Source of the DNA: a virus
Taxonomy: Duplodnaviria > Caudoviricetes
Strand: one strand, 5' to 3'
IMG/VR virus record: IMGVR_UViG_3300047469_000103
Span: 1-64,000 of that record
DNA length: 64,000 bases
The notes under the pieces are model-generated. The model was not told where the DNA came from. It did no database searches and worked only from the letters and a program-made list of their open reading frames with translations. This document shows positions 8,682-33,019 of the stretch, one piece after another; the first letter of the stretch is position 1; each line of letters begins with the position of its first letter. A program made the translations under genes and the position numbers.

Positions 8682-9417
8682 AATACCGTTAACGCGGAAC
8701 GAGCAGATTGAATTAATTGCAGGAAATACTCGTGTGGATAGCGGCGACGTTATCCCCACGCAGGATATTTTCTACGTCGATCATCAAGCGGTGCCCGACG
8801 GTGTTTTCTTTGCTGATCCAACGATACCGGGATGGCGCTATGCGGATAGCGTCACCATGTCGATTCCTGAGACGCGAACAGAATCACCGCGTCACGAAGG
8901 AATTAATTACTACGACGAAGTTGAAATGCCGCTGGGGATGAATGAGGTAGAAGTACCTGATTCCGAACTGGCGGAATTTAACGATACGTTGTCTGGAAAA
9001 ATCCCGGCGTTTAAAAAGTTGTTCTATTCCAGTGCGGCTACGCTTAGTGCGTTAGACGATGCAGCGGAATACGTGGAGGCTGCCCTTCGGGACGGCCTCG
9101 ACATTGACTTGGAAATGGACGGTGCGCTGCTTAGCGCATTCGTTCCAGTCTCACGGTTGGATGCGATTGCAACAATTGTGAAAAACACAAATTTGAGTCC
9201 GGCACTACAAGATGCCTACCTCATGAAAATGACTGAGCTTATTGCAGAAAAAACAATGGATGCCATGCAGAAACATGACATGGGCGTTGTTGCAAGAAGA
9301 CAAATCGAAGTATTACGGGAAGCAAATCATGCAAGAATTCGACCAGAAAAAGGCGGCACTCCGCTGCAACCTTCGCCCGCAACTTCACAGTGGGGCGTCA
9401 CAGGTACTCGACGATGA
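8656..9417 (+). CDS. Hypothetical protein, possible terminase small subunit
   Basis: Directly upstream of and overlapping TerL; start re-assigned to ATG 8656/8659; positional inference only. Confidence 0.4.
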   Translation: MMGHPPSPEIPLTRNEQIELIAGNTRVDSGDVIPTQDIFYVDHQAVPDGVFFADPTIPGWRYADSVTMSIPETRTESPRHEGINYYDEVEMPLGMNEVEVPDSELAEFNDTLSGKIPAFKKLFYSSAATLSALDDAAEYVEAALRDGLDIDLEMDGALLSAFVPVSRLDAIATIVKNTNLSPALQDAYLMKMTELIAEKTMDAMQKHDMGVVARRQIEVLREANHARIRPEKGGTPLQPSPATSQWGVTGTRR

Positions 9418-12296: not shown

Positions 12297-12856
12297 TGGA
12301 AATAAGTATCGCACACCCTTACGGAAATGCACCGGAAAAACCCACACCTTCCAAAGCGATTATGGAACGTGCGGAACAGGAGCCGACAAGTTTCTTCACC
12401 CTCGACGGCGAACGAAATCCAATCGGCCTTATTCGTTACGACGAAGACAACCTGCTGGTGCATCGCGACTCGCACGGACGTATTGATTATATCTGTGTGG
12501 TCGCAACATTCCGTCAGTCAAACTTACGAAAAGTTTTTGTGCAGAAAAACGTTTGGCAATTAGACAACTGCAAACGCGGCTTTGCACGCAAGGTCATGCT
12601 GCATTTCTGTACCGGGGGCCGCATACTCGCGTCGGACGAAAGACAGCGAAAGAAAGGCGCGATCATGTGGCGTAAATTCCTCGCAGAAGATTGCGGCGAC
12701 AAATACGCATACGTGCAGCACGCAAACGGTTTAAGCGGATTAACACCGCACACCAAATCCATGCTGATTGCATTTGCATACGCTGGAAACGCAGACAGCA
12801 AAATCTTTGTTGTTTCGGATCAACCTATAACCGACACAGTTCGGGCAAAATGGTGA
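12296..12856 (+). CDS. Divergent GNAT-like protein with MEISIA leader
   Basis: KRGFARKVM...ILASDERQRKKGAIMWRKF motif; leader shared with the 22.9-37.3 kb cluster. Confidence 0.55.
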   Translation: MEISIAHPYGNAPEKPTPSKAIMERAEQEPTSFFTLDGERNPIGLIRYDEDNLLVHRDSHGRIDYICVVATFRQSNLRKVFVQKNVWQLDNCKRGFARKVMLHFCTGGRILASDERQRKKGAIMWRKFLAEDCGDKYAYVQHANGLSGLTPHTKSMLIAFAYAGNADSKIFVVSDQPITDTVRAKW

Positions 12857-14087: not shown

Positions 14088-14678
14088 ATGCCGATACTTG
14101 CCAACGCGCTTATTGAAAGAATTGACGTAGATCGTGACCGTTATTTAGGTCTGATTAATCGCTGTAAATATGCCATCCTCATGAAAGAAGGTGACGATAC
14201 TTACCGCGCATACGAAACAAAAGACCCAAGCGTTCCGGGCCTTGAGGATTGCCGACTGCTGATTGTCACATTGAACGACAGGGATATTATTTATTCGTGT
14301 TATTTCAAAGTTGTCGAGCATCCGTTTTTCGGTAGTCGCGTTGTGCAAGTTGAAGTTCGATCAGATGAACCGGGAACAGCGCGGTTTGTGATGCAGAGAT
14401 TTTTCCTCAAGCATTACGGCGCGTTGCGTACCGACATTTCCCACACCCCAGCCGGGCGTAAAATGTGGGAAAGATTTATCGAAACAAATCAGTGCAATTT
14501 TTATATCGCTGATTTGCCGATTGACGCCAACACCGAACTGGGCAGGCGTAATCAAGATGCAAATAACGTAGAGCAGTTTTATCACCTACGACGATTAACC
14601 ACCGACGATGTTATCTGGCACGATAATCGACGCGGCAACGTGAGCGTAATCTACGCCACCAATGCGAGCATTTTATGA
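14088..14678 (+). CDS. Divergent GNAT-like protein
   Basis: PGTARFVM...LRTDISHTPAGRKMWERF parallels the 12296 ORF motif. Confidence 0.5.
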   Translation: MPILANALIERIDVDRDRYLGLINRCKYAILMKEGDDTYRAYETKDPSVPGLEDCRLLIVTLNDRDIIYSCYFKVVEHPFFGSRVVQVEVRSDEPGTARFVMQRFFLKHYGALRTDISHTPAGRKMWERFIETNQCNFYIADLPIDANTELGRRNQDANNVEQFYHLRRLTTDDVIWHDNRRGNVSVIYATNASIL

Positions 14679-16603
14679 GACTGAGAAAAAAGACCAGTTA
14701 TTCCGCAGTATCGCCGTCGAGTCCCGGTCGCGCACCTGTTGAAATGGGCGCAGCCGCGAACCATTACGGTACTCGCCAAGACATGAACGAATATATGGCA
14801 ACAGCAGCCGGTAGCGGCAACGCTTCCCTTTCCCAAATGCCGATTGAAATCGACATTGATCCGCTGCTAAAAGATATCGTGTTTTCCGAAGACCTTGAAC
14901 AGAAAAAACTGGTCATGCGTTTGTATTCGGACATGTATTACAACGACAGCATTTCCGGCTCCATTGTCGATATCAAATCTACACTGATGTTTTCCGAGTT
15001 TACCATCGGCGGTATTCTCGACCGGAAAGTGTCCGACGACTTCCAAGAAAACTTGGATCGTTTGGATATCAGAACTTTGATGCCAGACGTTGCGGTTGAC
15101 TACAACGTTAAAGGCGGTTTCGTTGGCTCGCTGCTGTATAACGGCACGTCGCAAGTGTTCTCGCGAATCATGCCGCACGCCTACGAAAACACAAAGATCG
15201 ACCAGCTTCCTTTTCACGGAACTGACCCACTAATTACCGTGGCATTTCCTGAATATATTCGTTCCACAATGGCGTCCGATTCTCCGCGTGTAAAAGCGCT
15301 GCGTGAATTCCTCGGTGCCGACGTGATGAAACAGCTTTCCAACGAAGCGCTAGAACTTGATCCGAAATCTACGGTTTATGTTCCGCGCCGTTCCGGTTCC
15401 ACCAGCACTGGCACATCTTATTTGCGCCGGGTTTTGCCGTGGTATTTGCTGGAGAAAAACCTTTTCCGTGGAACGTTGGTTCGCTCTGCAATGCGTCAAA
15501 AAGGTATTTTGCACGTAACACTTGACGGTGCCGGTGAATGGGAACCGACGCTCGCGGATATGCAAGCGGTTATGGATATGTTCATGAACGCGGACGCTGA
15601 CCCAATCGGCGCTGTTGTTGCTACGCGTGGCGGTATTTCCACTGAGGAAATTCGTGACCCGCAAGGCGGCTGGACAATCTTCGATAACAAAGACGCAATC
15701 GACAGCATCAAAATGAAAGCACTCGGTATTTCCGATGCGTTTCTTTCTGGTGACGCGACATATACAAACGGTGATACATCGACTTCTTTCTTCATTGACG
15801 GTGTGCGATCCGAACGTGATTATCTGACGCGGAAAGTTTTGTATAACAAGATTTTCCCGATGATTTCCGCAATGAAAGGTTACACGCTGAATAAACAGGG
15901 TAAGCTGATTATCAAAGGCAACAGCCTCGATAAAATGGATATCCTCGGTTCGTATGAGCGCCTGAATGACGGTTCTCGTTTGTTGATTCCTTCGGTTCAT
16001 TGGGAAAAGACTTTGAAACCGGAAGGCGATCAGCAATACATGGATATGTTGCAAGCGCTTACCGATAAAGGCGTGCCAGTTCCAATGCGTGTTATGGCTG
16101 CTGCTGGCGGGTTTAACCTCGACCGTTTGCTGGCTGCACAGGATTCCGATTTGCATATTCAGGAATCGGTTTACGAATACCAGAAGCGCGTAAAAGAACT
16201 GAAAAAGAAATACGGTATTGTTGATCCAAACGATATGGGCGGCGGTGGCGGCGAAGGTGGTTTCGCTACCAACTATGACAAACAAATCATGTCTTTGGCG
16301 CGCAATAATCCCGGCCTTTACGAAGCATTCCGTGCTGAAGCTCAGGGCATTTATAACCGCAACCTCGACAGAACACAGTCCGACGTATTGGCCCGTAATA
16401 ACGGTCAAATGGTTGGTTTGGCAAATCGTGACTTCGGTGAAATGTCTGAAGTGGCTGGTCATACCTCGACTGGCGAGCGCCGTTATTTGACCAATCAGAA
16501 ATTGGCGAATGAACGCGCTAATAGAAAGATTGTAAAACAATTGCGCCTTATGCAAGACAAAGGCACCGGCCACAACGTAACAAAGACGGTAACGCCTTAC
16601 TAA
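14675..16603 (+). CDS. Probable portal protein
   Basis: 642 aa mostly helical-type protein downstream of TerL; size and position; no diagnostic motif. Confidence 0.6.
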   Translation: MRLRKKTSYSAVSPSSPGRAPVEMGAAANHYGTRQDMNEYMATAAGSGNASLSQMPIEIDIDPLLKDIVFSEDLEQKKLVMRLYSDMYYNDSISGSIVDIKSTLMFSEFTIGGILDRKVSDDFQENLDRLDIRTLMPDVAVDYNVKGGFVGSLLYNGTSQVFSRIMPHAYENTKIDQLPFHGTDPLITVAFPEYIRSTMASDSPRVKALREFLGADVMKQLSNEALELDPKSTVYVPRRSGSTSTGTSYLRRVLPWYLLEKNLFRGTLVRSAMRQKGILHVTLDGAGEWEPTLADMQAVMDMFMNADADPIGAVVATRGGISTEEIRDPQGGWTIFDNKDAIDSIKMKALGISDAFLSGDATYTNGDTSTSFFIDGVRSERDYLTRKVLYNKIFPMISAMKGYTLNKQGKLIIKGNSLDKMDILGSYERLNDGSRLLIPSVHWEKTLKPEGDQQYMDMLQALTDKGVPVPMRVMAAAGGFNLDRLLAAQDSDLHIQESVYEYQKRVKELKKKYGIVDPNDMGGGGGEGGFATNYDKQIMSLARNNPGLYEAFRAEAQGIYNRNLDRTQSDVLARNNGQMVGLANRDFGEMSEVAGHTSTGERRYLTNQKLANERANRKIVKQLRLMQDKGTGHNVTKTVTPY

Positions 16604-18882: not shown

Positions 18883-19200
18883 ATGACAAAGTTATTCAAC
18901 CCCGAGGTGCTGGGTTCGGGTATTAAACTCCCTAAAGCCCCTACGCTGCCGAACCACGCAGTCCGCAAAGTCGATTTGGAAGGATTCGTTCAAGCGCAAA
19001 GGATCACAATAACCAATGTGCTTTCTGTAACGATTCCGAAGCTGGCCGACGATTTCTTTATTCAATGCTACGACGAACATAAACGATCATTTACCCCGGA
19101 TAGCATCGAAGAAACTGACGACGATATCGAAGTGAAATTCTTCGTTAATCAGACCGGTGTTATTCGTGTGCTGTTTATTGGAGGCAGCAGTGGCAACTAA
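18883..19200 (+). CDS. Hypothetical (tail-associated) protein
   Basis: 105 aa beta-rich ORF after motif A. Confidence 0.65.
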   Translation: MTKLFNPEVLGSGIKLPKAPTLPNHAVRKVDLEGFVQAQRITITNVLSVTIPKLADDFFIQCYDEHKRSFTPDSIEETDDDIEVKFFVNQTGVIRVLFIGGSSGN

Positions 19201-20011
19201 CATTTCCCAACGGTTTTCTAAAACCGGTGACTTTTATCTTTTGGTGGATACCGATTTACGTGGCGGTTTCCGTATCGTTAACAGCATTGCAGAGCGGGAC
19301 GCAATCCCGATTCAAGCACGTAAACAAGGCATGATTGTTCGGGTTATTGAATCCGGCGAAATCACCAACTGGGAATTGGGTTATGGTCTGCCAATTACCA
19401 ACGCCGGATGGATCGAAAGTTCCCTCGGTGGTAAAGGCGATTACATTCCCACAACTGGCGGGCCGTTGACCGGCGAACTGAATATTAGTGAACTCGGTTT
19501 TATCAACTTCAGCGATGCAATTTCCGCGCAGGTATTTGACGGCAATTTGCAGTTCACAAAAACCATTGTACAAGACCCGGACGATCCCGAACCGATGGGC
19601 ATGATGACCTTCAACGATGGTACAGAAAACACCGTTGAAATTAATCCGCAAATTGGTCAAATCGTTTGCAAAACTGAGGTGGCGATCGCATCCGACCGTT
19701 CGTTGAAAACCAACATCAAACGAATCGAAAACAGTTTGGCAATTACCCGTCGTATGTACGGCTACATGTACGAATTGATTTCGCAACCGGGCGTGATGCA
19801 CACCGGCCTGATTGCACAAGAAGTTAAACAGGCAATTCCAGCCGCGACCGTGCGTATGTCGAATGGCAAACTCGCAGTCGTTTATGGCAACCTGATGGGC
19901 CTTGCATTCGAAAACATTCACGACTTGGAAGACATGTGCTTGTCCATGCTGAAACGTCTGGATGCAATCGAAAAACATTTGGGTATTAATCAACCCGAAG
20001 AAGCCGCGTAA
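19190..20011 (+). CDS. Tail fibre protein with C-terminal intramolecular chaperone (peptidase S74-like)
   Basis: SDRSLKTNI...GYMY...GLIAQEV...P...V.Y..L..LAFE.I; GTG start at 19190 after GGAGG. Confidence 0.85.
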   Translation: MATNISQRFSKTGDFYLLVDTDLRGGFRIVNSIAERDAIPIQARKQGMIVRVIESGEITNWELGYGLPITNAGWIESSLGGKGDYIPTTGGPLTGELNISELGFINFSDAISAQVFDGNLQFTKTIVQDPDDPEPMGMMTFNDGTENTVEINPQIGQIVCKTEVAIASDRSLKTNIKRIENSLAITRRMYGYMYELISQPGVMHTGLIAQEVKQAIPAATVRMSNGKLAVVYGNLMGLAFENIHDLEDMCLSMLKRLDAIEKHLGINQPEEAA

Positions 20012-20466
20012 TGGGCTGCACTTACGACCAATCAAATGTCTTTAGCGTGGTGCCCACAAAAGATCAAAACACGGGCAAGCTTCCATCGACTCCACGCACC
20101 GAAATTTTACGCCTTGGGCATTCGGATTGTCAGACCAGTTATACATCGCTGGCCCAACAAATCAGTCAGGATATTTTGCAAGCATTTGAACGTGAGAAAA
20201 CAGGCTTTCCAATGCCGACGTTTATTGTGCTTGCGCATAAGTGGGAATGGCTACATCCAGACCTTGCACTATCGCAATACATTGAAAAGTATGTGGAAAT
20301 TCGCGACATTTCATTGGGCTATCCGCTGTCGAGTAATTACTACCTGTACCTTACCGACCCGGCAGCGTTTGGTTTCCCGATTGGCGTCACTGATTCGGAC
20401 GTACTGAATAGCCCGCTCAGAAATGCTGTGCGAATTACCTACATCGACAAACAGGAATTTGAATAA
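20011..20466 (+). CDS. Hypothetical protein
   Basis: 151 aa coupled ORF. Confidence 0.7.
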   Translation: MGCTYDQSNVFSVVPTKDQNTGKLPSTPRTEILRLGHSDCQTSYTSLAQQISQDILQAFEREKTGFPMPTFIVLAHKWEWLHPDLALSQYIEKYVEIRDISLGYPLSSNYYLYLTDPAAFGFPIGVTDSDVLNSPLRNAVRITYIDKQEFE

Positions 20467-21789
20467 ATGGCAACGTACCGTTATATCAACGAGGCAGATT
20501 TACTTTACGAAGACGTAAACGACGAATACGATATGCAGCTTGTAATGGGCGATCAATTCGACATGTACCGGCACGGCCAGTTCTACGTTGTGCATCATGA
20601 AGACGATCCGAATATCGCATTTAAACTCACGCTGAAACAGGGCAAAGCTCTGGAAGGAATGAGTGAAGAATTGCTGACTGTGCGACCGGACGTAAACAAT
20701 CCGCCGTACCTGCTTTTCGAACCGAAATTCGAAAACGTTAAACCGATGTACGACTACTACAACAAGCTGTATTTCAACGGCGCTTGCCCGGTCGTGAAAT
20801 TCAAGAAATCCGCCAACAGTAAAATTTGGGGGATGGCACAGCTTGAGTGGCTGAATAACAAACCGGTTTATACGTTCCACATTAACGAATCGACCATGAT
20901 TGACCGGGTGCTGTTTACTAACACCATCCTGCACGAAATGATTCACCTGTTCCAATACGCGAAAGGCAACAAGCTGCGCGGCCTCGATCCTGAAGCAGCA
21001 ATGGCGGCGATGCACGATAACCACGGCCCGCAATTCCAAGCGGAAATGCACCGGATTAACTCGTTTGGTTTCGGCATCATCATGGCCGGTACGCACGAAG
21101 AAATCGCACGTGAATCCACCGAAGATTTTTATGCAATCGTAGCAATTGGTTTGCATCAAAATAAATACAACGGTTGGCTGTCGTGGTACACGCATAAAGT
21201 CCTCGACCAAAGCGATTTGGAAAACGTGGCAGCGCAATTGCGTGAATCCACTCCGCACTTGGAATATCAGGTTAAGTTGTACAAGACGAAAAACCGAATC
21301 GTCACGTATGGCACCAACATGAAATCCACCAAAACCGTTACACCGGGATCGTTGAAGAAACTCAATCAGGGTACGCCTGATATGAAAGATTCGACAGAAC
21401 TCGGCGTGCTGTATTTGAAGCCGGTTATTGCCGTGGAATTGCCCGATTACAAAGAAGCGCCTGAGAAATACTCGCAGCCTTTGGATCGTTTTTACAAGAC
21501 CATGAAAAGCTACACTGACGATCACATAACGCTGAAAGCCAAGTGGGTTAAATTCCCGCTGCGTGCCCACAACAGCCAGACGGAAAAGAAAATCAGTGCA
21601 TTGGTTGGCCGCATGAAACGCGACAGTATTAACGATGCGGATATCGTGGATATTGTCACCGACATTCGCATGTCTTACGCCGACCGTTTCAAGTTCGAAC
21701 AATACGAAGACGCCATGCGTACATTCTTGAACCTGTACGATAAATCAGGCGTCACCGTGCCCTATTACAAAATCATGAAGCTGGACTAA
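20467..21789 (+). CDS. SprT-like zinc metalloprotease
   Basis: YYNKLYFNG, TILHEMIH (HExxH), HGPQF...M..IN. Confidence 0.85.
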   Translation: MATYRYINEADLLYEDVNDEYDMQLVMGDQFDMYRHGQFYVVHHEDDPNIAFKLTLKQGKALEGMSEELLTVRPDVNNPPYLLFEPKFENVKPMYDYYNKLYFNGACPVVKFKKSANSKIWGMAQLEWLNNKPVYTFHINESTMIDRVLFTNTILHEMIHLFQYAKGNKLRGLDPEAAMAAMHDNHGPQFQAEMHRINSFGFGIIMAGTHEEIARESTEDFYAIVAIGLHQNKYNGWLSWYTHKVLDQSDLENVAAQLRESTPHLEYQVKLYKTKNRIVTYGTNMKSTKTVTPGSLKKLNQGTPDMKDSTELGVLYLKPVIAVELPDYKEAPEKYSQPLDRFYKTMKSYTDDHITLKAKWVKFPLRAHNSQTEKKISALVGRMKRDSINDADIVDIVTDIRMSYADRFKFEQYEDAMRTFLNLYDKSGVTVPYYKIMKLD

Positions 21790-22287
21790 ATGGCAACTAA
21801 AGCGAAGGCATTAACAAGACGTGAAATCACGGAAAAACTTCACGAAGCTGTGATGTATTATTACGTGAAGAAAACGTACAGCGTTCACAGGGAAGTGGGC
21901 GTCGAGCGCTGGGGTAAGGCTCGTATTGACATGATGGCGCTGAGCCTGTCTTCGCAGATAATTGGTATCGAAGTTAAAAGCTGTTTGGCTGATTTCCGCG
22001 CCGATTCTAAATGGCGTAAATATCTGAGTCATTCGAACAAGTTTTATTTCATGTTCGCACCTTCCATCCTGAAGTCCCGCAAGTACGATGAAATCAAAGC
22101 GGAATTAAAGGAGGAAGGCGTGGGCATTCTGACACTGACAACCACGGGCCGGGTGCGCTGTGCGTTACGTGCGAAATCGCGTGAAGTGTCGGATACCAAA
22201 AAGTTTGACCTGTATAAGAAACTCGCTTGGCGTGGTGGTGACTCCAAGCGCAATATCAAAAAGACAAAGCGGGTATATTTGGAATGA
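21790..22287 (+). CDS. MmcB-like PD-(D/E)xK nuclease
   Basis: RIDMMAL...IEVKSCLADFRADSKWRKYLSHSNKFYF. Confidence 0.85.
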   Translation: MATKAKALTRREITEKLHEAVMYYYVKKTYSVHREVGVERWGKARIDMMALSLSSQIIGIEVKSCLADFRADSKWRKYLSHSNKFYFMFAPSILKSRKYDEIKAELKEEGVGILTLTTTGRVRCALRAKSREVSDTKKFDLYKKLAWRGGDSKRNIKKTKRVYLE

Positions 22288-22910
22288 CGGGGAAATTCAT
22301 TGTTCTTGAAAGTATCGAATGCGCCGGGAAGGGCACCGCTACAGATTACATGAAAGAGCATTTCACTCTAGCAAATGCAAAGGTGAAATACACACGGGAA
22401 ATCGGCGGTACGCCTTTCGCTGAGCGCATTCGCGAAATGATGCTGTCGTTAGACCCTGAATATGATTTGCCGCCAGCGTCGGATTTAATGATCGCGTATG
22501 GCGCACGAATTCAACACACAAAAAGCATGATTGTTCCGGCACTGGAAAGCGGCTACCACGTTTTCAGTGAACGCTACTACGCATCGACCTTGGCTTATCA
22601 AAGTCAGTACACGCCAGAAACTCAAGCGGTACACGATTTGATGATGCCGTATCTGCGCAAACCGAATATCACTCTGCTGTTGGATATCACGACAGAGACG
22701 ATGATGAAACGGATGTACGGAATTCGAAAAGCTTCTGGTATTGCACTCGACAAATTCGAAGTGAAATCTCAGGACTTTTTCGAAGGTGTGCGGAATGCCT
22801 ACCACAAACAAATTGACGATTCATGGGTAATCATTGACGCGGAGCGCAGCATTCCCGAAGTCAAAGAACAACTGTGTGCCGTCCTCAATAAATTTCTTGG
22901 GATTCCGTAA
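22284..22910 (+). CDS. tmk: Thymidylate kinase
   Basis: FIVLESIECAGKGT P-loop, TREIGGT, SERY..ST.AYQ, P..T.LLDI. Confidence 0.92.
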   Translation: MTGKFIVLESIECAGKGTATDYMKEHFTLANAKVKYTREIGGTPFAERIREMMLSLDPEYDLPPASDLMIAYGARIQHTKSMIVPALESGYHVFSERYYASTLAYQSQYTPETQAVHDLMMPYLRKPNITLLLDITTETMMKRMYGIRKASGIALDKFEVKSQDFFEGVRNAYHKQIDDSWVIIDAERSIPEVKEQLCAVLNKFLGIP

Positions 22911-23341
22911 TGAAAATCCAGATAGCCATTGCGAGCGCAGCACCGAAAAAGTTTGTACCGGCTGGCACGATTGTACGCCTGACAAAGAACCGCCCAACAT
23001 GGCGTGACCTTGGCCCGCGCCTGCTGAAAATTCCGATGCTGCAACGCGGTCATTTCGTTAGTGATTTGCCGGAAAACGATGATGGAATTATCGCCTACGC
23101 GCAGACCAATGCAATGACGCTGTTCTATGGCTATCGCATTCGTCTTGATGGCGAAAAAGATTTCATCGACAACCTGTTGATGTGCGTAGACGATAAAGGC
23201 CGCGTGGTAGAAGACGAAAAATATCGCCTGAATCATACGGCCTATTACGTCGGTGTGAAACTGCCAGACGCAGACATTAAATCACGGAAATATGCGAACA
23301 ACTTTGAACGCATGGATTACGTGTTACGGAATTTGGGGTGA
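22910..23341 (+). CDS. Hypothetical protein with MKIQIAIAS leader
   Basis: Coupled ORF; shared N-terminal leader. Confidence 0.7.
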   Translation: MKIQIAIASAAPKKFVPAGTIVRLTKNRPTWRDLGPRLLKIPMLQRGHFVSDLPENDDGIIAYAQTNAMTLFYGYRIRLDGEKDFIDNLLMCVDDKGRVVEDEKYRLNHTAYYVGVKLPDADIKSRKYANNFERMDYVLRNLG

Positions 23342-25017
23342 GTATGGAAATCAGTATTGCAGCCGCACCGGGGAGCGCTGACGCTCTGTTGAAACTTCTG
23401 ATCGCAATGTATCGCGCAGAGGATTTTAACTACGGTGAAAACTTCCTGAAGAAATTGCGTGCGTGGGAACCCGTCGCGCAACCGATGCTGGAACAGTTCG
23501 GCATTAAACGCGCATTCGCCCGTCCTATCGCCCTGCTGTTGGAAGGCGAAGACGTAAGCGATAACAAATACAATCACCTTGTCAAAGCGGCATTCGACAA
23601 GCTGAAAGAAAAGAAGAAAACATTCGAAAAAGATACCACGCTGAATAAAGTTCAACTCGGTATGTTCAACGATATTCGTCTGGCCTACAACGGATCGGAA
23701 AGCGCGGGCAAACGCCTGATGCAACACGCCGGTTACTTCAAAGACTCGCATATCTCGCAATTGTTTTTGCACGAAGGCGACGAAGTTGTAAGCGAAGTGC
23801 AGCAAGCGCTTTATGATCGACTGGGTGAACACGTTAAAACGCACGGCAAAGTAAAAGGCCACGTAATGCCTGACACTACGCTGACTGCGTGGCGTGACAA
23901 AGCAAAAGAAATCGGTTCGAATTTGCCGCAGCATCAAGAATATCTGGATATGCGCCGCCAACGGAAAGCCATTTACGACAAGGCAATTGCCAACATCGTT
24001 CGGGCGTCCGGCGAACACATTCTCGACGTGCAAGAAATCAAGCGTCAACTCGGTGATATTCAAAACGATATTCCAGATTGGTTTGTCGGCAAAATGGATG
24101 ACAAAGGGAACTTCTACACTGAAGCCGGTTTGCAGTTGCTGAATAAGCCGCTCGGTGAAGGCATGATGAACCCGAAATATAATCCTGCCGATGACAATTC
24201 CTACGTGTGTAAATACAAAGCACCGTTCGCGCAGAACTTCACCAGTGTGCAGACGATTGCCAACCGCACAGAAGGCCGCGTAGAAAGTTTTAGCATCATT
24301 CAAAACATGCTGCCGGACATTCAGAAATATGTGAAGAAATGGCTTCCTGATTTGGCGAAGGGGCCGGGTAGTTTGAAGGGCGCAGCCGCTGCTGTTTGCG
24401 AAGTGATTTATCAGACTTCCGCACGTATCGGTTCCACTCGGGCAAACACCGCTGGCGAAACCACTTACGGCATTTCTACACTGCTGCGCAAACACCTGAA
24501 TTTCAATGAACAACGCGTCATTATGAAATACATCGGGAAGAAAGGCGGCGCACAAAAGCACGTGATTAAATTCGAAGACCAGCGGACGATGATGCTGCAC
24601 TCTGCACTGGACGAATTCATTTACGAGAAAAAGCCAGCGGAATACGTGTTTACTTTCCGTGGTAAGCCATTGAGCAACAGCAATATCAACGGCTACCTGC
24701 GTGAACTCGGTTTCCCTGAAGGTTTCACCATTCACAAATTCCGCAAATTGCGCGGTACTGGAATGGCTAAGCTGCTGATGGACAAATGCCCTCACGGCCC
24801 GCGTGCAAAAGACGCAGTTGTTAACAAATGGATTGAAGACCAGTGCTTGAAAATCGGTAAAGAATTGGGCCACATGTCAGGCGAGAAAGTGACCGCAACC
24901 ACGGCCATCGCGAACTACATCGACCCATCGGTTTTCGCACCAGTTTTCGAGAAAACAAATACCCGTCCAAATAGCAAAATTCAGAAAGCTATGGACTTAG
25001 CTACGAAGGCGGAATAA
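23338..25017 (+). CDS. DNA topoisomerase IB (bacterial/poxvirus type)
   Basis: Catalytic pentad: SARIG (R), TYGISTLLRKH, YIGKKG (K), HKFRK (R), ELGH (H), ANYIDP (Y, nt 24916). Confidence 0.88.
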   Translation: MSMEISIAAAPGSADALLKLLIAMYRAEDFNYGENFLKKLRAWEPVAQPMLEQFGIKRAFARPIALLLEGEDVSDNKYNHLVKAAFDKLKEKKKTFEKDTTLNKVQLGMFNDIRLAYNGSESAGKRLMQHAGYFKDSHISQLFLHEGDEVVSEVQQALYDRLGEHVKTHGKVKGHVMPDTTLTAWRDKAKEIGSNLPQHQEYLDMRRQRKAIYDKAIANIVRASGEHILDVQEIKRQLGDIQNDIPDWFVGKMDDKGNFYTEAGLQLLNKPLGEGMMNPKYNPADDNSYVCKYKAPFAQNFTSVQTIANRTEGRVESFSIIQNMLPDIQKYVKKWLPDLAKGPGSLKGAAAAVCEVIYQTSARIGSTRANTAGETTYGISTLLRKHLNFNEQRVIMKYIGKKGGAQKHVIKFEDQRTMMLHSALDEFIYEKKPAEYVFTFRGKPLSNSNINGYLRELGFPEGFTIHKFRKLRGTGMAKLLMDKCPHGPRAKDAVVNKWIEDQCLKIGKELGHMSGEKVTATTAIANYIDPSVFAPVFEKTNTRPNSKIQKAMDLATKAE

Positions 25018-25020
25018 AAC

Positions 25021-25602
25021 ATGAAAGTAATGATTGCAGTTGCTTCGGAATATGTAGACGCACTTCCGAAGGGCGCCAAGATTAACAGCTTTGAAGTGTA
25101 CCGTTCCGGCACCAACAAAATGCTGGGCAAAGATAAAGCGGGCACGATGAAACAGATTGCAAAACGTCTGGATTACATACTGCCGGTTAACACGACTTTT
25201 GATTTGGTTGTGATTGCAGACCATGACGGCGCAACTCGCAAAGTCAAAGAATCCTACACGCTGAAATCTACCGGACTGGTTAAAGCACAAGTGGCAACAG
25301 CCGCCGCCAAACCTGCAAAGGTTAGCGCCAAAGTTGCACAGGTTATTACCTACGCAAAAAGCCAATATCCAATGAGTGGGCGCACGCCGACTTCGCTTTC
25401 GTTCACCAGTAAACAACGCGGTTTTATGGTCGAAGTTACCGACGCTGAAATCGTTGGTCGCGCATGGTACGAAGGCAACGACGACGCAATTAATCCCGAA
25501 TACAATATCAACGCCCCGACCGAACAAGGCTCGCTTGTGAAGCTTGCCAAATGGGTGAAATCCAGCAAGTCGGAAGCACCGCCATTCTCGGGGGCAAAAT
25601 GA
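25021..25602 (+). CDS. Hypothetical protein with MKVMIAVAS leader
   Basis: 193 aa ORF; shared leader. Confidence 0.7.
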   Translation: MKVMIAVASEYVDALPKGAKINSFEVYRSGTNKMLGKDKAGTMKQIAKRLDYILPVNTTFDLVVIADHDGATRKVKESYTLKSTGLVKAQVATAAAKPAKVSAKVAQVITYAKSQYPMSGRTPTSLSFTSKQRGFMVEVTDAEIVGRAWYEGNDDAINPEYNINAPTEQGSLVKLAKWVKSSKSEAPPFSGAK

Positions 25603-25775
25603 TTAAAGTATTCAACGTATCAGCGCTACACGAACGCTACGCCAACGAAACCGACGAAGAAAAAACCGCTCGTTATGCTGCGAATAAAAAGCGCATTACC
25701 GACATGGTTGAAGCGTGGGACAAGTTCGCGAAAGAGCATCCAGAAGCCGCTAAACAAATGAGGTGCGCAGCATAA
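25599..25775 (+). CDS. Small hypothetical protein
   Basis: Start re-assigned to ATG 25599 overlapping upstream stop. Confidence 0.55.
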   Translation: MIKVFNVSALHERYANETDEEKTARYAANKKRITDMVEAWDKFAKEHPEAAKQMRCAA

Positions 25776-26233
25776 TGGAAATCAAATTGATGACCGCAAC
25801 CGCCGCTGATTATCCAAGTCGTTACGCCCTCGGTTCGCTGGTGTATTTCCATCCCGGCATTCAGGGCATGACCGATGCTGAAGGTATCACGCACGGTTTG
25901 CTGGCGCGTATTGATCGCGTAAGTTTCGAGGAAGGTAAAGTAACCTACGACCTCGCAATGAACATTTCGAACAGCACAGAACTTCCACATTTTTACGACG
26001 CAATTCTGGTCGCAAGTGTGGACAGTATTTTCGTGGCTTCTTTTGACGATCTGGTTATGTGGACTGCGCAGCGTGCAAAAAGCGTAGAAGCATTAATCGG
26101 TGCAATTGAAGAACCGCAACTCGTAACGATGGCTACGGCATCCGGTGCGCTGACAATTGACGACGCCGAACGCATTACCCGTCGTTTTATCGCAATCGCC
26201 GCAGACGTGGCCGAACAGAAGGCAGCCGCGTAA
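25775..26233 (+). CDS. Hypothetical protein with MEIKLMTATA leader
   Basis: Start re-assigned to ATG 25775 (TAATG coupling). Confidence 0.7.
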   Translation: MEIKLMTATAADYPSRYALGSLVYFHPGIQGMTDAEGITHGLLARIDRVSFEEGKVTYDLAMNISNSTELPHFYDAILVASVDSIFVASFDDLVMWTAQRAKSVEALIGAIEEPQLVTMATASGALTIDDAERITRRFIAIAADVAEQKAAA

Positions 26234-27147
26234 TGGAACTGCAATTAGCCGTAGCAAAAGATTTCGGTAGTGTTTTTCACGGTACATCGTTTATCAACAT
26301 GGCCGCGATTATCAAGACCGACAAACTGCAACTGTCGCAAGTCGCCGGTAAAGAAGCAGAAGCCGCATTCGCAAAACATCCGTTCTTTTTGAGCGTGCGC
26401 CGTAACCGTGTGTTGACTGCGCAAAACTTCTACGACGTGACAATCGAATTCAAAGAACAATCCCTGCAATCGCGGATGAAACGTGAGTCAGTGGATTACT
26501 GGGGCCACGTCGAAGGCAAGGGTAACAGCATCGAACAGGAAGACCGCTATTACAGCGCTAAACCTGTGCTGCAAAAAGCCACAAAATTGATTCGTGCAAT
26601 TCACGTTGACCTGTCGAACTATGACGCCGAACGTCGCGGCAAAATGATGCGTGAAATGTTCGTGTCGGCAATGCGCCAAGGTGTGAAGGTTTATCTGTAC
26701 AAAGATAAGTCGGCATACGGCAATTTGAACGTGCGTAAAACCGTGCCGCTTTCTGATATGGAATACGGCGGTAAAGTGCAGAATCTTTTCCGCACGCGCA
26801 CCGCTGAAGAAGCCACGCAAGAAGGCGAAGACCAGATGTACAAGGGCATGCGTTATGCTCGCTCGGTTTACCCGGACATTAAATTCTTTGTCGATATTCT
26901 GTACGGCAATACTCCGCCAGTAAACGACAAAACGAAATACCTGCGTGAGCGTTATGGCTACCGCTACGGCGAACACGATTTGACTACGCAATTCCAGAAC
27001 GAATTGCATAACGCCTCGCACAGCCACGGCCCGAAAGATAAACAGTTGGCCGCTCGCCTGCAAACGTGGATGCGTGACAACAAAATGGATATCAAAGAAA
27101 CAGCTTATCGCGTGCGTGAAAACATTCGGAAAGCTGACGGGGAATAA
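26233..27147 (+). CDS. ADP-ribosyltransferase-like protein (paralogue 1)
   Basis: FHGT ... FFLSVRR ... DYW ... EQEDR spaced like ART H/R-S-E motifs. Confidence 0.6.
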   Translation: MELQLAVAKDFGSVFHGTSFINMAAIIKTDKLQLSQVAGKEAEAAFAKHPFFLSVRRNRVLTAQNFYDVTIEFKEQSLQSRMKRESVDYWGHVEGKGNSIEQEDRYYSAKPVLQKATKLIRAIHVDLSNYDAERRGKMMREMFVSAMRQGVKVYLYKDKSAYGNLNVRKTVPLSDMEYGGKVQNLFRTRTAEEATQEGEDQMYKGMRYARSVYPDIKFFVDILYGNTPPVNDKTKYLRERYGYRYGEHDLTTQFQNELHNASHSHGPKDKQLAARLQTWMRDNKMDIKETAYRVRENIRKADGE

Positions 27148-27148
27148 C

Positions 27149-28072
27149 ATGCAAATTCAACTGGCCCTTGCCGGATCGTCGGTTCTGTACCATTTGATCC
27201 CGATGGAATACGCGATCCCTGCACTGCAAAAAGATCGTTTTAAATTGGCTGCTACCAACGAAGGCGTAGAGTCTGAATTCGGTAAGCAGCAGTTCTTTCT
27301 GAGTCTGGCGCGTTCGAAACAAAGCCATTACTTCACGAATGAAATCAACGTGACCAGCGTTGTGTTCGTGTTGGACGGCGTAAAGATGGGCCAGAATTAC
27401 CAGATTAAACCAGTGGATTACTGGGCCAGTCAGCAGCACGTGACCAGCGATGAAATGGAAGACCGTTTGTTTGCCGACAAACTGTATATCCCTTGCGTGA
27501 AATACGTGAAGGAAATCCATTTCATGACTGAGCGCGAAGCCAAATGGAAATCGAACGATAGCCTGACGCTGGCGCTGCTTGCCAAACGGAATGGCATCGA
27601 GCTTTATCAATACGATGACATGAAAGACTTCGCGAAGCTGGATAAGCGCAAGAAAATCAAACTGGAAGTCAGCGATAAAAAGAAACCGAAATTCGGTGCG
27701 AAGAAAGGATTTAATCCCGGCCCCGATGGCGACCTGCAAGCGTGGTACGTTGCATCGCAAATCGTCTTCAAACCAAATGAGGATTTCGGTACGCAATTCG
27801 TTAAAGGCGCAAAGCATAAAGAAGAGCGCAAAGCCCGTGACCGTATTCGTCGGCAGATTAACCAACTGAATCGCACGTGGGAAGTCGGCAGCCAAGCGGT
27901 ACGGGATTTCAATCGTCTGCTAGGTTATGCAAAAGACGGCGAAGACCTTCAATTCCTTGAGAAAATTAAACGTGTAAAACGCAAACAGCGCGTCGATACC
28001 AAAGGCTTTCTGGATTATGTTCGGAAGCGTTGGATGACTGCTGAAGACCGCGTGAATCACGGACTGGAGTAA
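27149..28072 (+). CDS. ADP-ribosyltransferase-like protein (paralogue 2)
   Basis: LYH ... FFLSLAR ... VVFVLDG ... PVDYW ... EMEDR; start re-assigned to ATG 27149. Confidence 0.6.
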   Translation: MQIQLALAGSSVLYHLIPMEYAIPALQKDRFKLAATNEGVESEFGKQQFFLSLARSKQSHYFTNEINVTSVVFVLDGVKMGQNYQIKPVDYWASQQHVTSDEMEDRLFADKLYIPCVKYVKEIHFMTEREAKWKSNDSLTLALLAKRNGIELYQYDDMKDFAKLDKRKKIKLEVSDKKKPKFGAKKGFNPGPDGDLQAWYVASQIVFKPNEDFGTQFVKGAKHKEERKARDRIRRQINQLNRTWEVGSQAVRDFNRLLGYAKDGEDLQFLEKIKRVKRKQRVDTKGFLDYVRKRWMTAEDRVNHGLE

Positions 28073-28074
28073 CC

Positions 28075-29976
28075 ATGAGAATTCAGATAGCCCTTGCGTC
28101 GGTGCCGCTTAGCATTGCACGAAAGTATGTAAAAAACTGGAACAAAAATGGCATCGGTGTAAAGGCTGTCCGCCAGTTCATGAAGCCGCCGAAGAAAGGG
28201 TATCGGTTTTACATTCCGATCAAGCCTAAAAAATCTGCAAAAATTGTACCGCCGTCGAATATCGTCAGCACCTTGGATTCCCTCGGTTATAAAATTGATG
28301 ATTACGTGAGCGGTATTGCAGTTGACCGCACAGGCAATCGTCGCATGCGGATTGGTAAACTTCTCAAGGATGATTCGCTGCGTCAGGAATTCGCAAACGA
28401 TCCACAACGCAGTGCGCACAAAGACGAATATGTCTGCGTGCTTTCTTCACATCCTTATGACGTAATCGGTATGTCTACCGGGCGCCGTTGGGATATGACT
28501 TCCTGTATGCGTCTGGATCAACCGGGCAAAACACAGGGCGGTGTGTACAAAGAAAAAGTTGCAAAAGACGTGGCGGAAGGGACAATTGTTGCCTACGCCA
28601 TTTCGCCAAAAGACACGAACATCGCAAACCCACATGCACGGCTTTTAATTAAACCGTTTTACAAAACCACTGGCGGGAACCGGACGCAGAATAGAAAAGT
28701 TGTTCTATTCCGTGTTGAAACGAAAGTCTACGGCACACCAATTCCCGGCTTTATGGAAACCGTGAGCGCGTGGCTACGCAAGGTCAACAGCAAGGCCGAG
28801 GCGGGTGTTTATACGATTGCGCCTGAGCTTTATGACGACGGCGTTGGTCAGCTTGCAATTCACGCGGACTTTAACAAGACGCCCGATGATGAAAGGTTTA
28901 AATACCTGAATGAAAACCGGGAACAAATCCCCCTAATTGTTAAATCCGATATACGTTGGTTGGGTGTTGCCTTCCAGCATATGTCGCAACTGTATTACAA
29001 CGCGAATAACCCCGGCACTCAGGCAGCGAACCTGCTAGACCTGATGAACAAAGTTAAAACGCTGGGTTCAACGGTTAAAGAAATTGGACAACAAGTCGAG
29101 AAATTCTTACCGGACGCCGATCTTCCGTGGCTTGCTAAAATGCTGCCTCAAGATGCCATGCAGCCTATTGCTGATTATTCTGCGCGCCTGACAAAAGCCA
29201 CTGACGCGGAATACGCATACGATCCAGAATCCCCACTTATGTCGTCGTCAGAAATCCTGACAAAACGTGCGTACTGGGATGCTCGCTGGTTGGCGAAAAT
29301 GGATGATCTTACGGATGAATACGCGGCAGGAAATACATTCCTTTCGTTCATTCGCAGTCGCCTAACGGACACACCGGAATTCCGAAAGTCTAAAGCTCCC
29401 GGCTCAATTAAAATGCGTGAATATCTCGGTATGATGTTCCGCATTGCTGCCAAGTCTTCGAACGACGAAGAGACTGGCGTGAAACTGTCGCGCAAACTGG
29501 CGCCACGATTCAAGGTTGATACCTATTTCAATCCGACAATTGAAAAATTGATGGGGCGCATTTGGGAACATCGAATGAAACGTGCTACCGGTCGTGCTGA
29601 TGGGGAAACCGCCTCCGGTCTGTTGTGCGCTGTAGACAGAACGTGGCCTGCACAAAACGTTGAATTAATTGCAGACAGTGGCAATGTAGTTCTGCGCCAA
29701 GAAGTATTCGAAGACCTGCTGAAAATCAATACCGAATATGCAAACTGGGAAATCGCCACACGTATTCGCGAAGAACTCGCCGCATCGAACCTAACGCAGA
29801 CCTCGTGGAATATGCGCTACCCGTGGATGCTGCCGTTTATTAAATCGGTTGCTCGTGGCCCATACCCGCCGCGCTTGATGCAGTGGGCGCAGGACTTTAT
29901 CGCCCATATTGAAAAAGTCTCAAAAGAAATGGATGACATTTTCAAAGAACTCGGCCTCGACGAAGACGGAAATTAA
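28075..29976 (+). CDS. Large protein, HPYD/SCMRL family paralogue 1
   Basis: SHPYDVIGMSTGRRWDMTSCMRL, DVAEGTIVAYAI; MRIQIALAS leader. Confidence 0.8.
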   Translation: MRIQIALASVPLSIARKYVKNWNKNGIGVKAVRQFMKPPKKGYRFYIPIKPKKSAKIVPPSNIVSTLDSLGYKIDDYVSGIAVDRTGNRRMRIGKLLKDDSLRQEFANDPQRSAHKDEYVCVLSSHPYDVIGMSTGRRWDMTSCMRLDQPGKTQGGVYKEKVAKDVAEGTIVAYAISPKDTNIANPHARLLIKPFYKTTGGNRTQNRKVVLFRVETKVYGTPIPGFMETVSAWLRKVNSKAEAGVYTIAPELYDDGVGQLAIHADFNKTPDDERFKYLNENREQIPLIVKSDIRWLGVAFQHMSQLYYNANNPGTQAANLLDLMNKVKTLGSTVKEIGQQVEKFLPDADLPWLAKMLPQDAMQPIADYSARLTKATDAEYAYDPESPLMSSSEILTKRAYWDARWLAKMDDLTDEYAAGNTFLSFIRSRLTDTPEFRKSKAPGSIKMREYLGMMFRIAAKSSNDEETGVKLSRKLAPRFKVDTYFNPTIEKLMGRIWEHRMKRATGRADGETASGLLCAVDRTWPAQNVELIADSGNVVLRQEVFEDLLKINTEYANWEIATRIREELAASNLTQTSWNMRYPWMLPFIKSVARGPYPPRLMQWAQDFIAHIEKVSKEMDDIFKELGLDEDGN

Positions 29977-29978
29977 TC

Positions 29979-30221
29979 ATGCAAATTGAATTGGCTACAG
30001 CAGCGGCCACGACTGTCAAAGCGTCCGACGTAAAAGACACCGTGAAGTTGATCGAAGCTGCAATTAAAAAACAACGAATGTTTCTCGTGCAAAGCGGTGG
30101 CGAACAAAACCCGCAAGTCGTGACCGAACGTCTGCGTGTGCAGGAACGTGTTGATATGTTGGAAGCGATTCTGGATTCCATGAAAGGTAAACACATTGCC
30201 TTGAGGATTTACGCTCAATGA
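29979..30221 (+). CDS. Small helical protein with MQIELATAA leader
   Basis: 80 aa coupled ORF. Confidence 0.7.
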   Translation: MQIELATAAATTVKASDVKDTVKLIEAAIKKQRMFLVQSGGEQNPQVVTERLRVQERVDMLEAILDSMKGKHIALRIYAQ

Positions 30222-33019
30222 ATATTGAAATGGCAGTCGCCGCCGTCTCGATGAAAACGGCACTGAAATATCGCCGTGACTGGAATAAAAACAGTCCGGC
30301 TGTAAAAGCTTTGCAAAAGATGCTGCCTGTTGGCCCCGGCAAGAAAGGTTATCGCCTGTACATTCCAATCGGCGCACAGATTAAACATCGTTTTATCATT
30401 CCGCCAGCCGTGCGTTTCGCGCTGAAGAAGAATGGCTTTGTTGCCACCGATTACCTCGCAAAGAAATGTGTTAAGCTTGACGACAAAGACCAGAAGAACG
30501 TATTTAACATCGGCAAAGTAATTGCCAAAGATGTTCATGCGAAAATGGCTTTCGACAACGACCCGCAATTGCAGAACACCGCTAGCGGCGCGCATTTACA
30601 AGTGGTTATTTCCTGCCACCCTTACGATATTATCGGCATGTCCACCGGGCGTTCGTGGGATAAACAATCCTGCATGCGTCTCGACGATGGCGTGGTAAAC
30701 CGTGGGGATAAAGGCGCATACAGTCGCCACGTGAAAAACGACGTAGCTGAAGGGACATTGGTTGCGTATGCAATTGATCCAAACGACACGAATATTAACA
30801 AGCCGAAATGCCGCTGCCTGATTAAACCTTTCGTGAATAGCGAAGGTGAGGTTTTGTATCGTCGTGAATCGGATGTTTACGGCAACCCGGTTCCCGGTTT
30901 TAATTCGACGGTGAACGCATTTCTACGCAAGCTAAATGCTGATGCGGAATCCGGCCATTACGAAATGAGCGGCGATCTTTACGACGACGGCGCTGGTACG
31001 GATCACCATCACGTAAAAAGTGATAGCAACCGCATCACAAACGACGACGTAGGCGACGATCATTCGTTGGCTGTTGATTTCGTTAAGCAGGAAATGGAAA
31101 TCATCAAAGCTGGTGAAGAGGACGAAACAACGAACCTCGGAAATATCAGCGGCGCACGAAACAACGCGAATAATATCGCACATATGCTGAATGATTTAAC
31201 CAGTAACGAAATGACTGTTCAACTGGATGAAATTGCCGACCTCGTGCGCGGTAGTGAATTCATTGGGCAGTATGTGAACGATCTTGTTCTACATGGGAAA
31301 AAGATTAACTCTGCGTTGGCCTACGTGGCACGCAAAGCCGGTCTGCTGGACAAGCGTAAAGAAATAAACTTTCCAGAAACAATGGATGTGAAACTGGCAA
31401 TTACGCAAGCGCGTTCCGGCAACCCTGCTGCAATGGAAGTCGTGCTGCGTAATCTGGACGACGAAGAAAACCCCGGCGATCATCACGCACAAATTCTCGC
31501 AGACCTGATGTACGGCGTGTTGCCAGTTCCTGAAAAGGAAATGTTGGATAAATACCCGTTTGCTCGTTCGTTTATCCACACGACCGCTTCGGCTGCGCGC
31601 TTCCTGAATCTGTTTAGCTACGAACGTTTCCACGAAGCGGCTTTCGCCCTTCTGGAAATCACCGAAGGCTCGGAAAAAATGCGTGGCGATTATGTCATGT
31701 ACACGCTGCGTGAAGTGCAAGGTTTGGAATTGGTTCTGTGCTATCTGTTGGATAACGTAGGATTTCTTTCGGCGGATGAATGGTTCCTGTTCCGCACTAA
31801 CGAAATGGCTGAGCATTTGATTGGCCGACGCAACTTCCGCGCTTTCGATAAGCTAACAGATAATCAAGCGCAGATGTTTATGGAACACATTAAAATCGAC
31901 ATGATGCGCCTCATTGTCACACAGCCGTATCGAGCCGACGCATTCAAAGACAACTTCCCTGCAATTCGCGCGTTCTTTCTGGAACATCCAGAAAACATTA
32001 ACAGCATTATCGAGGGCCGTGGCACGCAACAATGGGATATTGCGTGTGTCACAAACCTGATTAAATTCTCGGTGCCGATGTTCCTGCAATTGAACGGTGA
32101 AGGTTCTGCGTTCAATGCTTCGATGGTCACTGCGATGATGAATGCAATCGCCCCGTATTTGCTGGATTACAACGGCGCAGACAAGATCGGTGACGACGAC
32201 AAAACCGAAGTCGCCAGTACGCAAATGGAATTCATTATGCAGGCGTTGCAAGTCGCCGGTAAAATGCTGGATAAACCTGTTGATTTCACAAAGCATATTG
32301 ATTTCGAACCGGTTGATCTGAAAGCTGTGTCTGCCAAGTTTAAAAACCTTGCAGGCGGCGACCGCAACGGTGCCTATATGACTTTCTCCGGTGTGTTGTC
32401 CGGTCTGGAAATCAACGGGCAGTCGATCAACATTGCACAAGAAATGGAATTGATTGTCGCGGAAGCGCCAGCCTCGTTCTATGCAATGCCGCGTGAAACA
32501 CTGGCAAACCATCACCGGACGATCATTAAAGAACTCGCTAAAATGTCGTCGATGGATACGCTTCTGAAATCCGCAGAAAACATTCTCGATAATACGGAAA
32601 TGGTTGAAACGGAAGACGAAGACAGCTACGTCAACGATAACAGCGACATGGGTGATGCTTACCCGGACGATGACGACTACGACGAACTGTTGGAAGCAGC
32701 ACAAGATAAAGCCCGCGATAAAGTCGAACGTTTGAATCAAGCAACAGTGGAAACAAACACGAAATGTTTGCGTGCTTTGGAAATGCTGCAAATGCTTATC
32801 GGTGAAGACGAAGAGGAAGATGAAGACGACGAAGACGAAGACGAAGATGGTGAAGTGAAATCGAAGCCGCTTGAATTCGGTTATCAGACTCCACAATTCA
32901 CCCCGGAAATCTTTGAAGAATATTCGTCTGATATCCTTGAACTGCGTGAGCGGATTAAAGAAGCATTGGCACAACGCTCGGAAGAAGCGGAAGAATACCG
33001 TGACGCTGCCGGGTATTAA
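30218..33019 (+). CDS. Large protein, HPYD/SCMRL family paralogue 2, acidic C-terminus
   Basis: CHPYDIIGMSTGRSWDKQSCMRL, DVAEGTLVAYAI; MNIEMAVAA leader. Confidence 0.8.
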   Translation: MNIEMAVAAVSMKTALKYRRDWNKNSPAVKALQKMLPVGPGKKGYRLYIPIGAQIKHRFIIPPAVRFALKKNGFVATDYLAKKCVKLDDKDQKNVFNIGKVIAKDVHAKMAFDNDPQLQNTASGAHLQVVISCHPYDIIGMSTGRSWDKQSCMRLDDGVVNRGDKGAYSRHVKNDVAEGTLVAYAIDPNDTNINKPKCRCLIKPFVNSEGEVLYRRESDVYGNPVPGFNSTVNAFLRKLNADAESGHYEMSGDLYDDGAGTDHHHVKSDSNRITNDDVGDDHSLAVDFVKQEMEIIKAGEEDETTNLGNISGARNNANNIAHMLNDLTSNEMTVQLDEIADLVRGSEFIGQYVNDLVLHGKKINSALAYVARKAGLLDKRKEINFPETMDVKLAITQARSGNPAAMEVVLRNLDDEENPGDHHAQILADLMYGVLPVPEKEMLDKYPFARSFIHTTASAARFLNLFSYERFHEAAFALLEITEGSEKMRGDYVMYTLREVQGLELVLCYLLDNVGFLSADEWFLFRTNEMAEHLIGRRNFRAFDKLTDNQAQMFMEHIKIDMMRLIVTQPYRADAFKDNFPAIRAFFLEHPENINSIIEGRGTQQWDIACVTNLIKFSVPMFLQLNGEGSAFNASMVTAMMNAIAPYLLDYNGADKIGDDDKTEVASTQMEFIMQALQVAGKMLDKPVDFTKHIDFEPVDLKAVSAKFKNLAGGDRNGAYMTFSGVLSGLEINGQSINIAQEMELIVAEAPASFYAMPRETLANHHRTIIKELAKMSSMDTLLKSAENILDNTEMVETEDEDSYVNDNSDMGDAYPDDDDYDELLEAAQDKARDKVERLNQATVETNTKCLRALEMLQMLIGEDEEEDEDDEDEDEDGEVKSKPLEFGYQTPQFTPEIFEEYSSDILELRERIKEALAQRSEEAEEYRDAAGY

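Follow-up and report, generated by a model that had tools for sequence, protein, structure and literature searches.

A type IB DNA topoisomerase of a Lu11-like jumbo phage, with a family-specific helical domain and a leader common to neighbouring genes, as a candidate for delivery in the virion

The window analysed here, a stretch of 64,000 nucleotides (positions 1 to 64,000 of the IMG/VR record IMGVR_UViG_3300047469_000103), is DNA of a Lu11-like jumbo Pseudomonas phage. It contains a gene for a type IB DNA topoisomerase (TopIB), which lies in one co-directional array with the genes of the terminase large subunit (9390-12296) and the portal protein (14675-16603), 74-75% identical to Lu11 gp188 and gp191, and is situated 6.7 kb downstream of the portal gene. 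The open reading frame occupies positions 23338-25017 of the + strand, on which its domains and the blocks of genes upstream and downstream of it described below also lie, and comprises 559 codons when counted from the GTG at 23338, a codon overlapped by the TGA of the upstream gene. The ATG at 23344 is the likelier start, because the N-terminus M-E-I-S-I-A-A-A that it would give fits the N-termini of homologues and the leader of the neighbouring genes; the pattern M-x-[IVM]-[STAH]-[ILF], which matches this start, stands at the N-terminus of 18 of the 19 aligned homologues. The coding sequence is taken as 23344-25017 (557 amino acids and TAA), with GTG 23338 as the alternative upstream start, and all residue numbers of TopIB are counted from the ATG at 23344. 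The nucleotide search of the phage collection returned no match, so that no close DNA relative is present in this collection.

Profile matches and the predicted fold fully support the identification of the gene product as a genuine type IB DNA topoisomerase. The catalytic core belongs to the Pfam family PF01028 (Topoisom_I), the model of which it matches at 47 bits (E 2.7e-12; cutoff 23.7), and phrog_23460 matches the protein over its full length. The single sequence gave weak matches to the Deinococcus and variola TopIB in a search of the Protein Data Bank (PDB), and the profile built from 20 homologues matched the Deinococcus enzyme at 1.2e-9, the archaeal enzyme 6z01 at 1.1e-8 and the variola enzyme at 3e-5. 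The AlphaFold model, calculated from the alignment of the 20 homologues, reached a mean predicted local distance difference test score (pLDDT) of 84 and has the two-lobed clamp fold of TopIB, composed of a small beta N-domain and an alpha/beta catalytic domain. In the Foldseek comparison, the best 21 matches of this model were all TopIB structures (E 2e-8 to 8e-5), including human Top1, archaeal 6z01/6z03, and the Deinococcus, Leishmania and variola enzymes (variola TMt 0.62).

The complete R-K-R-H-Y pentad and the two TopIB signatures, which had been pointed out in a reading of this DNA made from the sequence alone (hereafter the sequence-only reading), were confirmed. The pentad consists of R361 (codon 24424-24426), K399 (24538-24540), R467 (24742-24744), H510 (24871-24873) and Y525 (24916-24918), and the motifs TYGISTL and NYIDP correspond to residues 374-380 and 524-528. 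R361, K399, R467 and H510 align residue for residue with R137, K174, R239 and N280 of Deinococcus TopIB, and Y525 stands opposite the tyrosine of the identical N-Y-I-D-P motif of the archaeal enzyme. All five residues are invariant in the 20 close homologues and likewise in 138 cluster representatives, the most distant of which are only about 27% identical, and such invariance in diverse relatives argues for selection for catalysis. It also makes scarcely credible the alternative of a protein that binds DNA inside the virion and is catalytically dead or has a purely structural function; nothing specific speaks for this alternative save the large non-catalytic N-terminal domain that matches no known fold.

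A different feature of the active site has to be considered in the context of tyrosine recombinases. Three residues before the second catalytic arginine, the phage protein has H464 (24733-24735), a histidine in 122 of the 138 family sequences. Cellular and poxviral TopIB have lysine at this position (K220 in vaccinia), and the H-x-x-R arrangement is recombinase-like; the resulting R-K-H-R-H-Y set of phage TopIB resembles that of lambda Int. This set raises the possibility of a sequence-specific tyrosine recombinase or telomere resolvase that merely scores as TopIB and has no swivelase activity, as do the sub-threshold or marginal PF00589 matches of several homologues, the weak match to a PHROGs integrase (3.8e-4), and the presence of XerH and integrases lower in the Foldseek list, from E 7e-4. 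Such a function is nevertheless very unlikely, given that the window protein scored above the cutoff of PF01028 and had no reported PF00589 match at E<=1, that the tyrosine recombinases rank below every TopIB structure in the Foldseek list, and that the TopIB-specific motifs T-Y-G-[IL]-S-T-L and N-Y-I-D-P are present. Moreover, a circularly permuted genome has been described for the related phage PaBG (PMC7412058), and hairpin telomeres would have no place in it. Hairpin-telomere resolution, named in the sequence-only reading among the outcomes that would speak against its proposal, finds no support.

The domain architecture of the protein differs in extent from what was initially supposed. 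The leader (23344-23367), which is common to neighbouring genes and predicted to be disordered, opens a family-specific N-terminal domain (23344-24009; residues 1-222) with an isoelectric point of 9.05. In the AlphaFold model, residues 1-10 are disordered and residues 11-222 all helical, with a long helical hairpin predicted for residues 142-225, and the beta-sheet domain spans residues 226-302. A small beta-sheet domain (24010-24255; residues 223-304) and the TopIB catalytic domain (24256-25014; residues 305-557) follow. In the profile alignment, residue 77 of variola TopIB aligns with residue 305 of the phage protein, and the beta-sheet domain is therefore regarded as the counterpart of the N-terminal domain of the poxviral and bacterial enzymes. 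The sequence-only reading had assumed about 300 extra N-terminal residues; about 300 residues do precede the catalytic domain, but the genuinely extra part comprises only about 222, because residues 223-304 have their counterpart in the usual beta domain.

The helical domain is conserved across the family, and its invariant residues among the 20 homologues include R112, R124, H197, R204 and R220. Folded alone, it reached a pLDDT of 85.5. The Foldseek search with the isolated domain gave no match at E<=0.001, and its best VIA Z was 6.1, to a generic helical hairpin, which is under the noise level for helical proteins. The domain is thus a novel helical one that matches no known fold; it may bind DNA or dock to another protein. 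An assignment of residues 1-225 to Topoisom_I_N, suggested by a language-model lead of the ESM Atlas (0.87) with few shared features, was confirmed neither by Pfam nor by the fold searches and is regarded as unproven.

The enzyme itself is not new, as it is the orthologue of Lu11 gp203 (71.5% identity; annotated as 'putative topoisomerase I'), of the HRDY3 protein (72%; 'DNA topoisomerase type I') and of PaBG gp084 (41%; 'DNA topoisomerase I'). In this respect, the window enzyme is one further, unremarkable orthologue of a jumbo-phage TopIB that had been annotated before. The three known proteins have been listed as phage-specific TopI among the DNA-topology functions (Iyer et al., 2021; PMC7824862). 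Weaker protein matches were found to phiRSL1 ORF108 ('topoisomerase IB'), Motura gp210 and NCTB, and in Xanthomonas, Burkholderia and Rhizobium jumbo phages. The jumbo-phage family (Lu11, HRDY3, PaBG, phiRSL1, Motura; phrog_23460) shares the same three-domain layout in proteins of 540-605 residues that align over their full length. The Lu11 and PaBG enzymes share the gene neighbourhood of the window TopIB and differ from it in nothing essential; those of phiRSL1, Motura and the Rhizobium phages have no clear leader. Matches were obtained in 21 of 50,697 phage records, all of them phages of 190-315 kb. When 1.84 billion cluster representatives were searched exhaustively, 685 metagenomic clusters (50% identity) were obtained at E<=1e-3, and the stricter limit of E<=1e-30 left 178; most members have 540-600 residues and are aligned over the full length. 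The long phage TopIB is thus rare in isolates and common in metagenomes, and the statement that the enzyme is uncommon in tailed phages holds for the former.

Upstream of TopIB lies a conserved block (20467-23341), syntenic with it, which consists of the genes for an SprT-like metalloprotease with KMPT-N and SprT-like domains (20467-21789), an MmcB-like nuclease-fold protein (21790-22287), thymidylate kinase (Tmk; 22284-22910) and a leader-bearing protein of 143 residues (22910-23341). The order of these four genes followed by TopIB is kept in Lu11 and PaBG, and also in three metagenomic relatives despite a TopIB identity to the window of only 35-36%; the loci displaying it are positions 20467-25017 of the window, L001, L002, L006, L007 and L009. 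The gene content downstream of TopIB differs between relatives. A promoter and terminator scan of 19000-31000 revealed nothing above the shuffled expectation. Long stop-free frames are present on the - strand opposite the TopIB and SprT genes (23317-24873, 518 codons, and 20500-21702, 400 codons, respectively). Comparable ones lie opposite many other + strand genes of the window, and they are probably a by-product of codon usage rather than genes.

The leader is not restricted to TopIB. Nine consecutive genes start with M-x-[IVL]-x-[ILM]-[AM]-x-[AS], namely those beginning at 22910 and 23344 and those of the downstream run (25021-33019), which begin at 25021, 25775, 26233, 27149, 28075, 29979 and 30218. 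Inside the window proteins this pattern occurs at about 0.001 per position, so that about 0.1 gene starts would be expected to bear it as compared with the 9 observed; the earlier remark that neighbouring genes share the MEISIAAA leader is thereby substantiated. The codons for its Ile, Leu and Ala residues vary synonymously among the carrying genes, which argues that the peptide, and not the RNA, is under selection. The leader is thus a short N-terminal peptide common to unrelated proteins of the morphogenesis region. In Lu11, a sharper form, MKIQLAVA, is found on gp202-gp214. In metagenomic relatives, the leader heads proteins with DarA_C, weak ATLF-like and ART-PolyVal Pfam matches (L007 2221-2688 and 12124-12711; L006 8666-9178) as well as SprT-like ones, and DarA_C and ART-PolyVal are families linked to head-packaged or injected phage proteins. 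The SprT-like protein is itself headed by the leader in PaBG (MELAIAS) and L007 (MFVSHSAS), but not in the window. A small open reading frame between the terminase and portal genes (12296-12856) starts with MEISIAH.

Fusions of TopIB to other domains were found among the longer members of its family, and five of these proteins (P0047, P0135, P0145, P0089 and P0007) are tied to the loci L006, L007 and L008. According to Pfam, Tad6 is fused N-terminally in P0047 (E 3e-35) and, independently, C-terminally in P0135 (E 3e-10), Acb1 is fused N-terminally in P0145 (29.7 bits against a cutoff of 27), and DUF5661 is fused C-terminally in P0089. By its Pfam name, Acb1 is an anti-CBASS protein. According to a 2026 editorial (PMC13728456), Tad6 is co-purified with ThsB, the TIR protein of Thoeris, and its anti-Thoeris activity depends on loop residues that, by prediction, obstruct the catalytic site of ThsB. 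Such factors have to act as soon as infection begins, and their fusion to TopIB speaks for the presence of the enzyme at that time as well. Three relatives have a GNAT-like module, itself headed by the leader, that precedes TopIB as an in-frame fusion, and in at least one of them (P0007) a second leader-like segment is retained at the junction; this segment would be as compatible with a processing site as with a signal. The GNAT-like module of P0004 and P0007 starts in a way similar to the small open reading frame at 12296-12856 (MEISIAAS and MLISIAAS). Many further members of the family, of 650-1000 residues, have N-terminal extensions without a Pfam match.

The question arises of where and when this topoisomerase acts. 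The reading that we favour, and to which we assign about an even chance, is that an active, jumbo-phage-specific TopIB is directed by its leader into the prohead and delivered with the DNA to the next cell. Delivery in the virion is itself plausible, with roughly equal prospects of being right or wrong, and rests on circumstantial evidence, i.e., the leader on nine genes, the position in the terminase-portal array, the tagged DarA_C and ART-PolyVal proteins of relatives, and the fusions to Tad6, Acb1 and the GNAT-like module. The published proteome of PaBG virions, obtained by sodium dodecyl sulfate-polyacrylamide gel electrophoresis and matrix-assisted laser desorption/ionization, comprises 14 proteins, and these include gp83, encoded by the gene adjoining that of TopIB (PMC7412058, Table 1).

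Several observations weigh against delivery in the virion. TopIB (gp84) is not among the 14 PaBG virion bands, by a method that sees only abundant, Coomassie-visible proteins (PMC7412058). No direct evidence of TopIB in virions was found, the PaBG proteome being the only relevant one met, and the papers on MIJ3, Xanthomonas PhiXhv and Atu_ph07, together with a 2026 review of jumbo phages, hold no TopIB virion data. Neither a prohead protease nor a cleavage site was found. In distant TopIB homologues the leader-like segment [IV]-S-L-S-A-V is preceded by up to 15 residues, and in TopIB the leader may accordingly be an intrinsic element of the N-terminal domain rather than a detachable signal. 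Finally, the homologues of phiRSL1, Motura, the Rhizobium phages and the metagenomic locus L008 are located beside genes for nicotinamide adenine dinucleotide (NAD) salvage, NUDIX, dCMP deaminase, SSB, DNA ligase and SNF2 helicase, a context of replication and nucleotide metabolism that fits an ordinary intracellular role in replication or repair.

Such ordinary intracellular action is the main rival to delivery in the virion. TopIB would then be an active but unpackaged enzyme, which acts intracellularly on phage DNA that is being replicated, recombined or heavily transcribed, and perhaps while it is packaged, as part of a DNA-maintenance block with the SprT-like, MmcB-like and Tmk proteins, and the leader would be part of its own N-terminal domain or would serve assembly, localisation or translation. 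The conservation of the SprT-like/MmcB-like/Tmk/x/TopIB order down to about 35% identity is in line with this, as are the neighbours of the distant homologues, the missing PaBG band, the internal position of the leader-like motif in some distant members and the placement of the enzyme under DNA-topology functions by Iyer et al. (2021). We regard it as a serious possibility, albeit one falling short of an even chance. An intrinsic TopIB element would hardly account for the presence of the identical tag on neighbours that are unrelated, and the position in the terminase-portal array, along with the fusions to immediate-acting anti-defence domains, fits delivery better. The observation from which the sequence-only reading started thus holds, and its interpretation holds in part: the identity as TopIB is established, whereas carriage in the virion is something we infer.

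On the favoured reading, the mode of action of TopIB can be outlined by combining established TopIB chemistry, from which the reaction steps are taken, with the fold, catalytic residues and domain layout determined in this analysis. The two C-terminal domains would clamp duplex DNA, and Y525, aided by R361, K399, R467 and H510, would attack one strand, forming a 3'-phosphotyrosyl link. The cut strand would swivel in a controlled way before the nick is resealed, and both positive and negative supercoils would be relaxed without ATP or Mg2+. Since neither ATP nor metal is needed, TopIB could act inside the capsid or within the first seconds after ejection. The disordered leader, common to the neighbours in the terminase-portal array, would direct the enzyme into the prohead, and TopIB would enter the next cell with the DNA. 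There, or during the packaging or ejection of the 280-kb genome, it would remove torsion independently of host gyrase and before phage gene expression.

A wider proposal, which we put forward tentatively and hold to be more probably wrong than right in its entirety, is that a capsid-loading system common to the whole lineage operates through the 8-residue tag, with TopIB as one of its cargoes beside ART-, GNAT-, DarA- and protease-type effectors. Ejected with the 280-kb genome, TopIB would serve as an energy-free swivel, and the SprT-like protease would be a built-in remover of trapped TopIB-DNA adducts, the phage counterpart of SPRTN/Wss1. SPRTN and Wss1 act on Top1 cleavage complexes, and an SprT-type protease adjoining TopIB recalls their removal of Top1-DNA adducts. 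The role of the protease, argued from this analogy, is the more speculative part of the proposal, and the protease may act in this way.

If delivery in the virion is true, a tailed phage would have a capsid-borne topoisomerase like that of poxviruses and would control the topology of its incoming giant genome independently of the host, and a simple common tag could define a whole set of ejected proteins. The fusions to Tad6 and Acb1 and the linkage to the SprT-like gene are concrete new handles for testing the idea of capsid carriage, with Lu11 on Pseudomonas putida as the system.

Among cellular enzymes, the TopIB of Deinococcus radiodurans (PDB 2f4q/3m4a) and the eukaryote-like archaeal TopIB (6z01) are the best profile matches and share the T-Y-G-[LI]-S-T-L and (S/N)-Y-I-x-P motifs with the phage enzyme. 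The Deinococcus enzyme has asparagine where the phage (H510), poxviral and eukaryotic enzymes have histidine, and both the Deinococcus and the archaeal structures are without the N-terminal helical domain of the phage family. As regards the leader, capsid-targeting sequences are carried by the internal proteins and Alt of phage T4, and phage P1 has its Dar head proteins. The likeness to these systems consists in a short N-terminal peptide on unrelated proteins encoded near head genes and in the DarA_C and ART-type domains of relatives; the leader consensus M-x-[IV]-x-[IL]-A-x-A is without the Glu of the T4 L/I-x-E cleavage motif. Poxvirus TopIB (vaccinia/variola; PDB 2h7f, 1a41) resembles the phage enzyme in its small beta N-domain, catalytic domain and R-K-R-H-Y pentad, and differs from it, at about 14% identity, in having neither the 222-residue helical domain nor the N-terminal leader. 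The poxviral enzyme, whose chemistry is ATP-independent, is carried in the core of the virion and assists early transcription. Carriage of the phage TopIB in the virion, as proposed here, would parallel that of the virion-packaged poxvirus TopIB.

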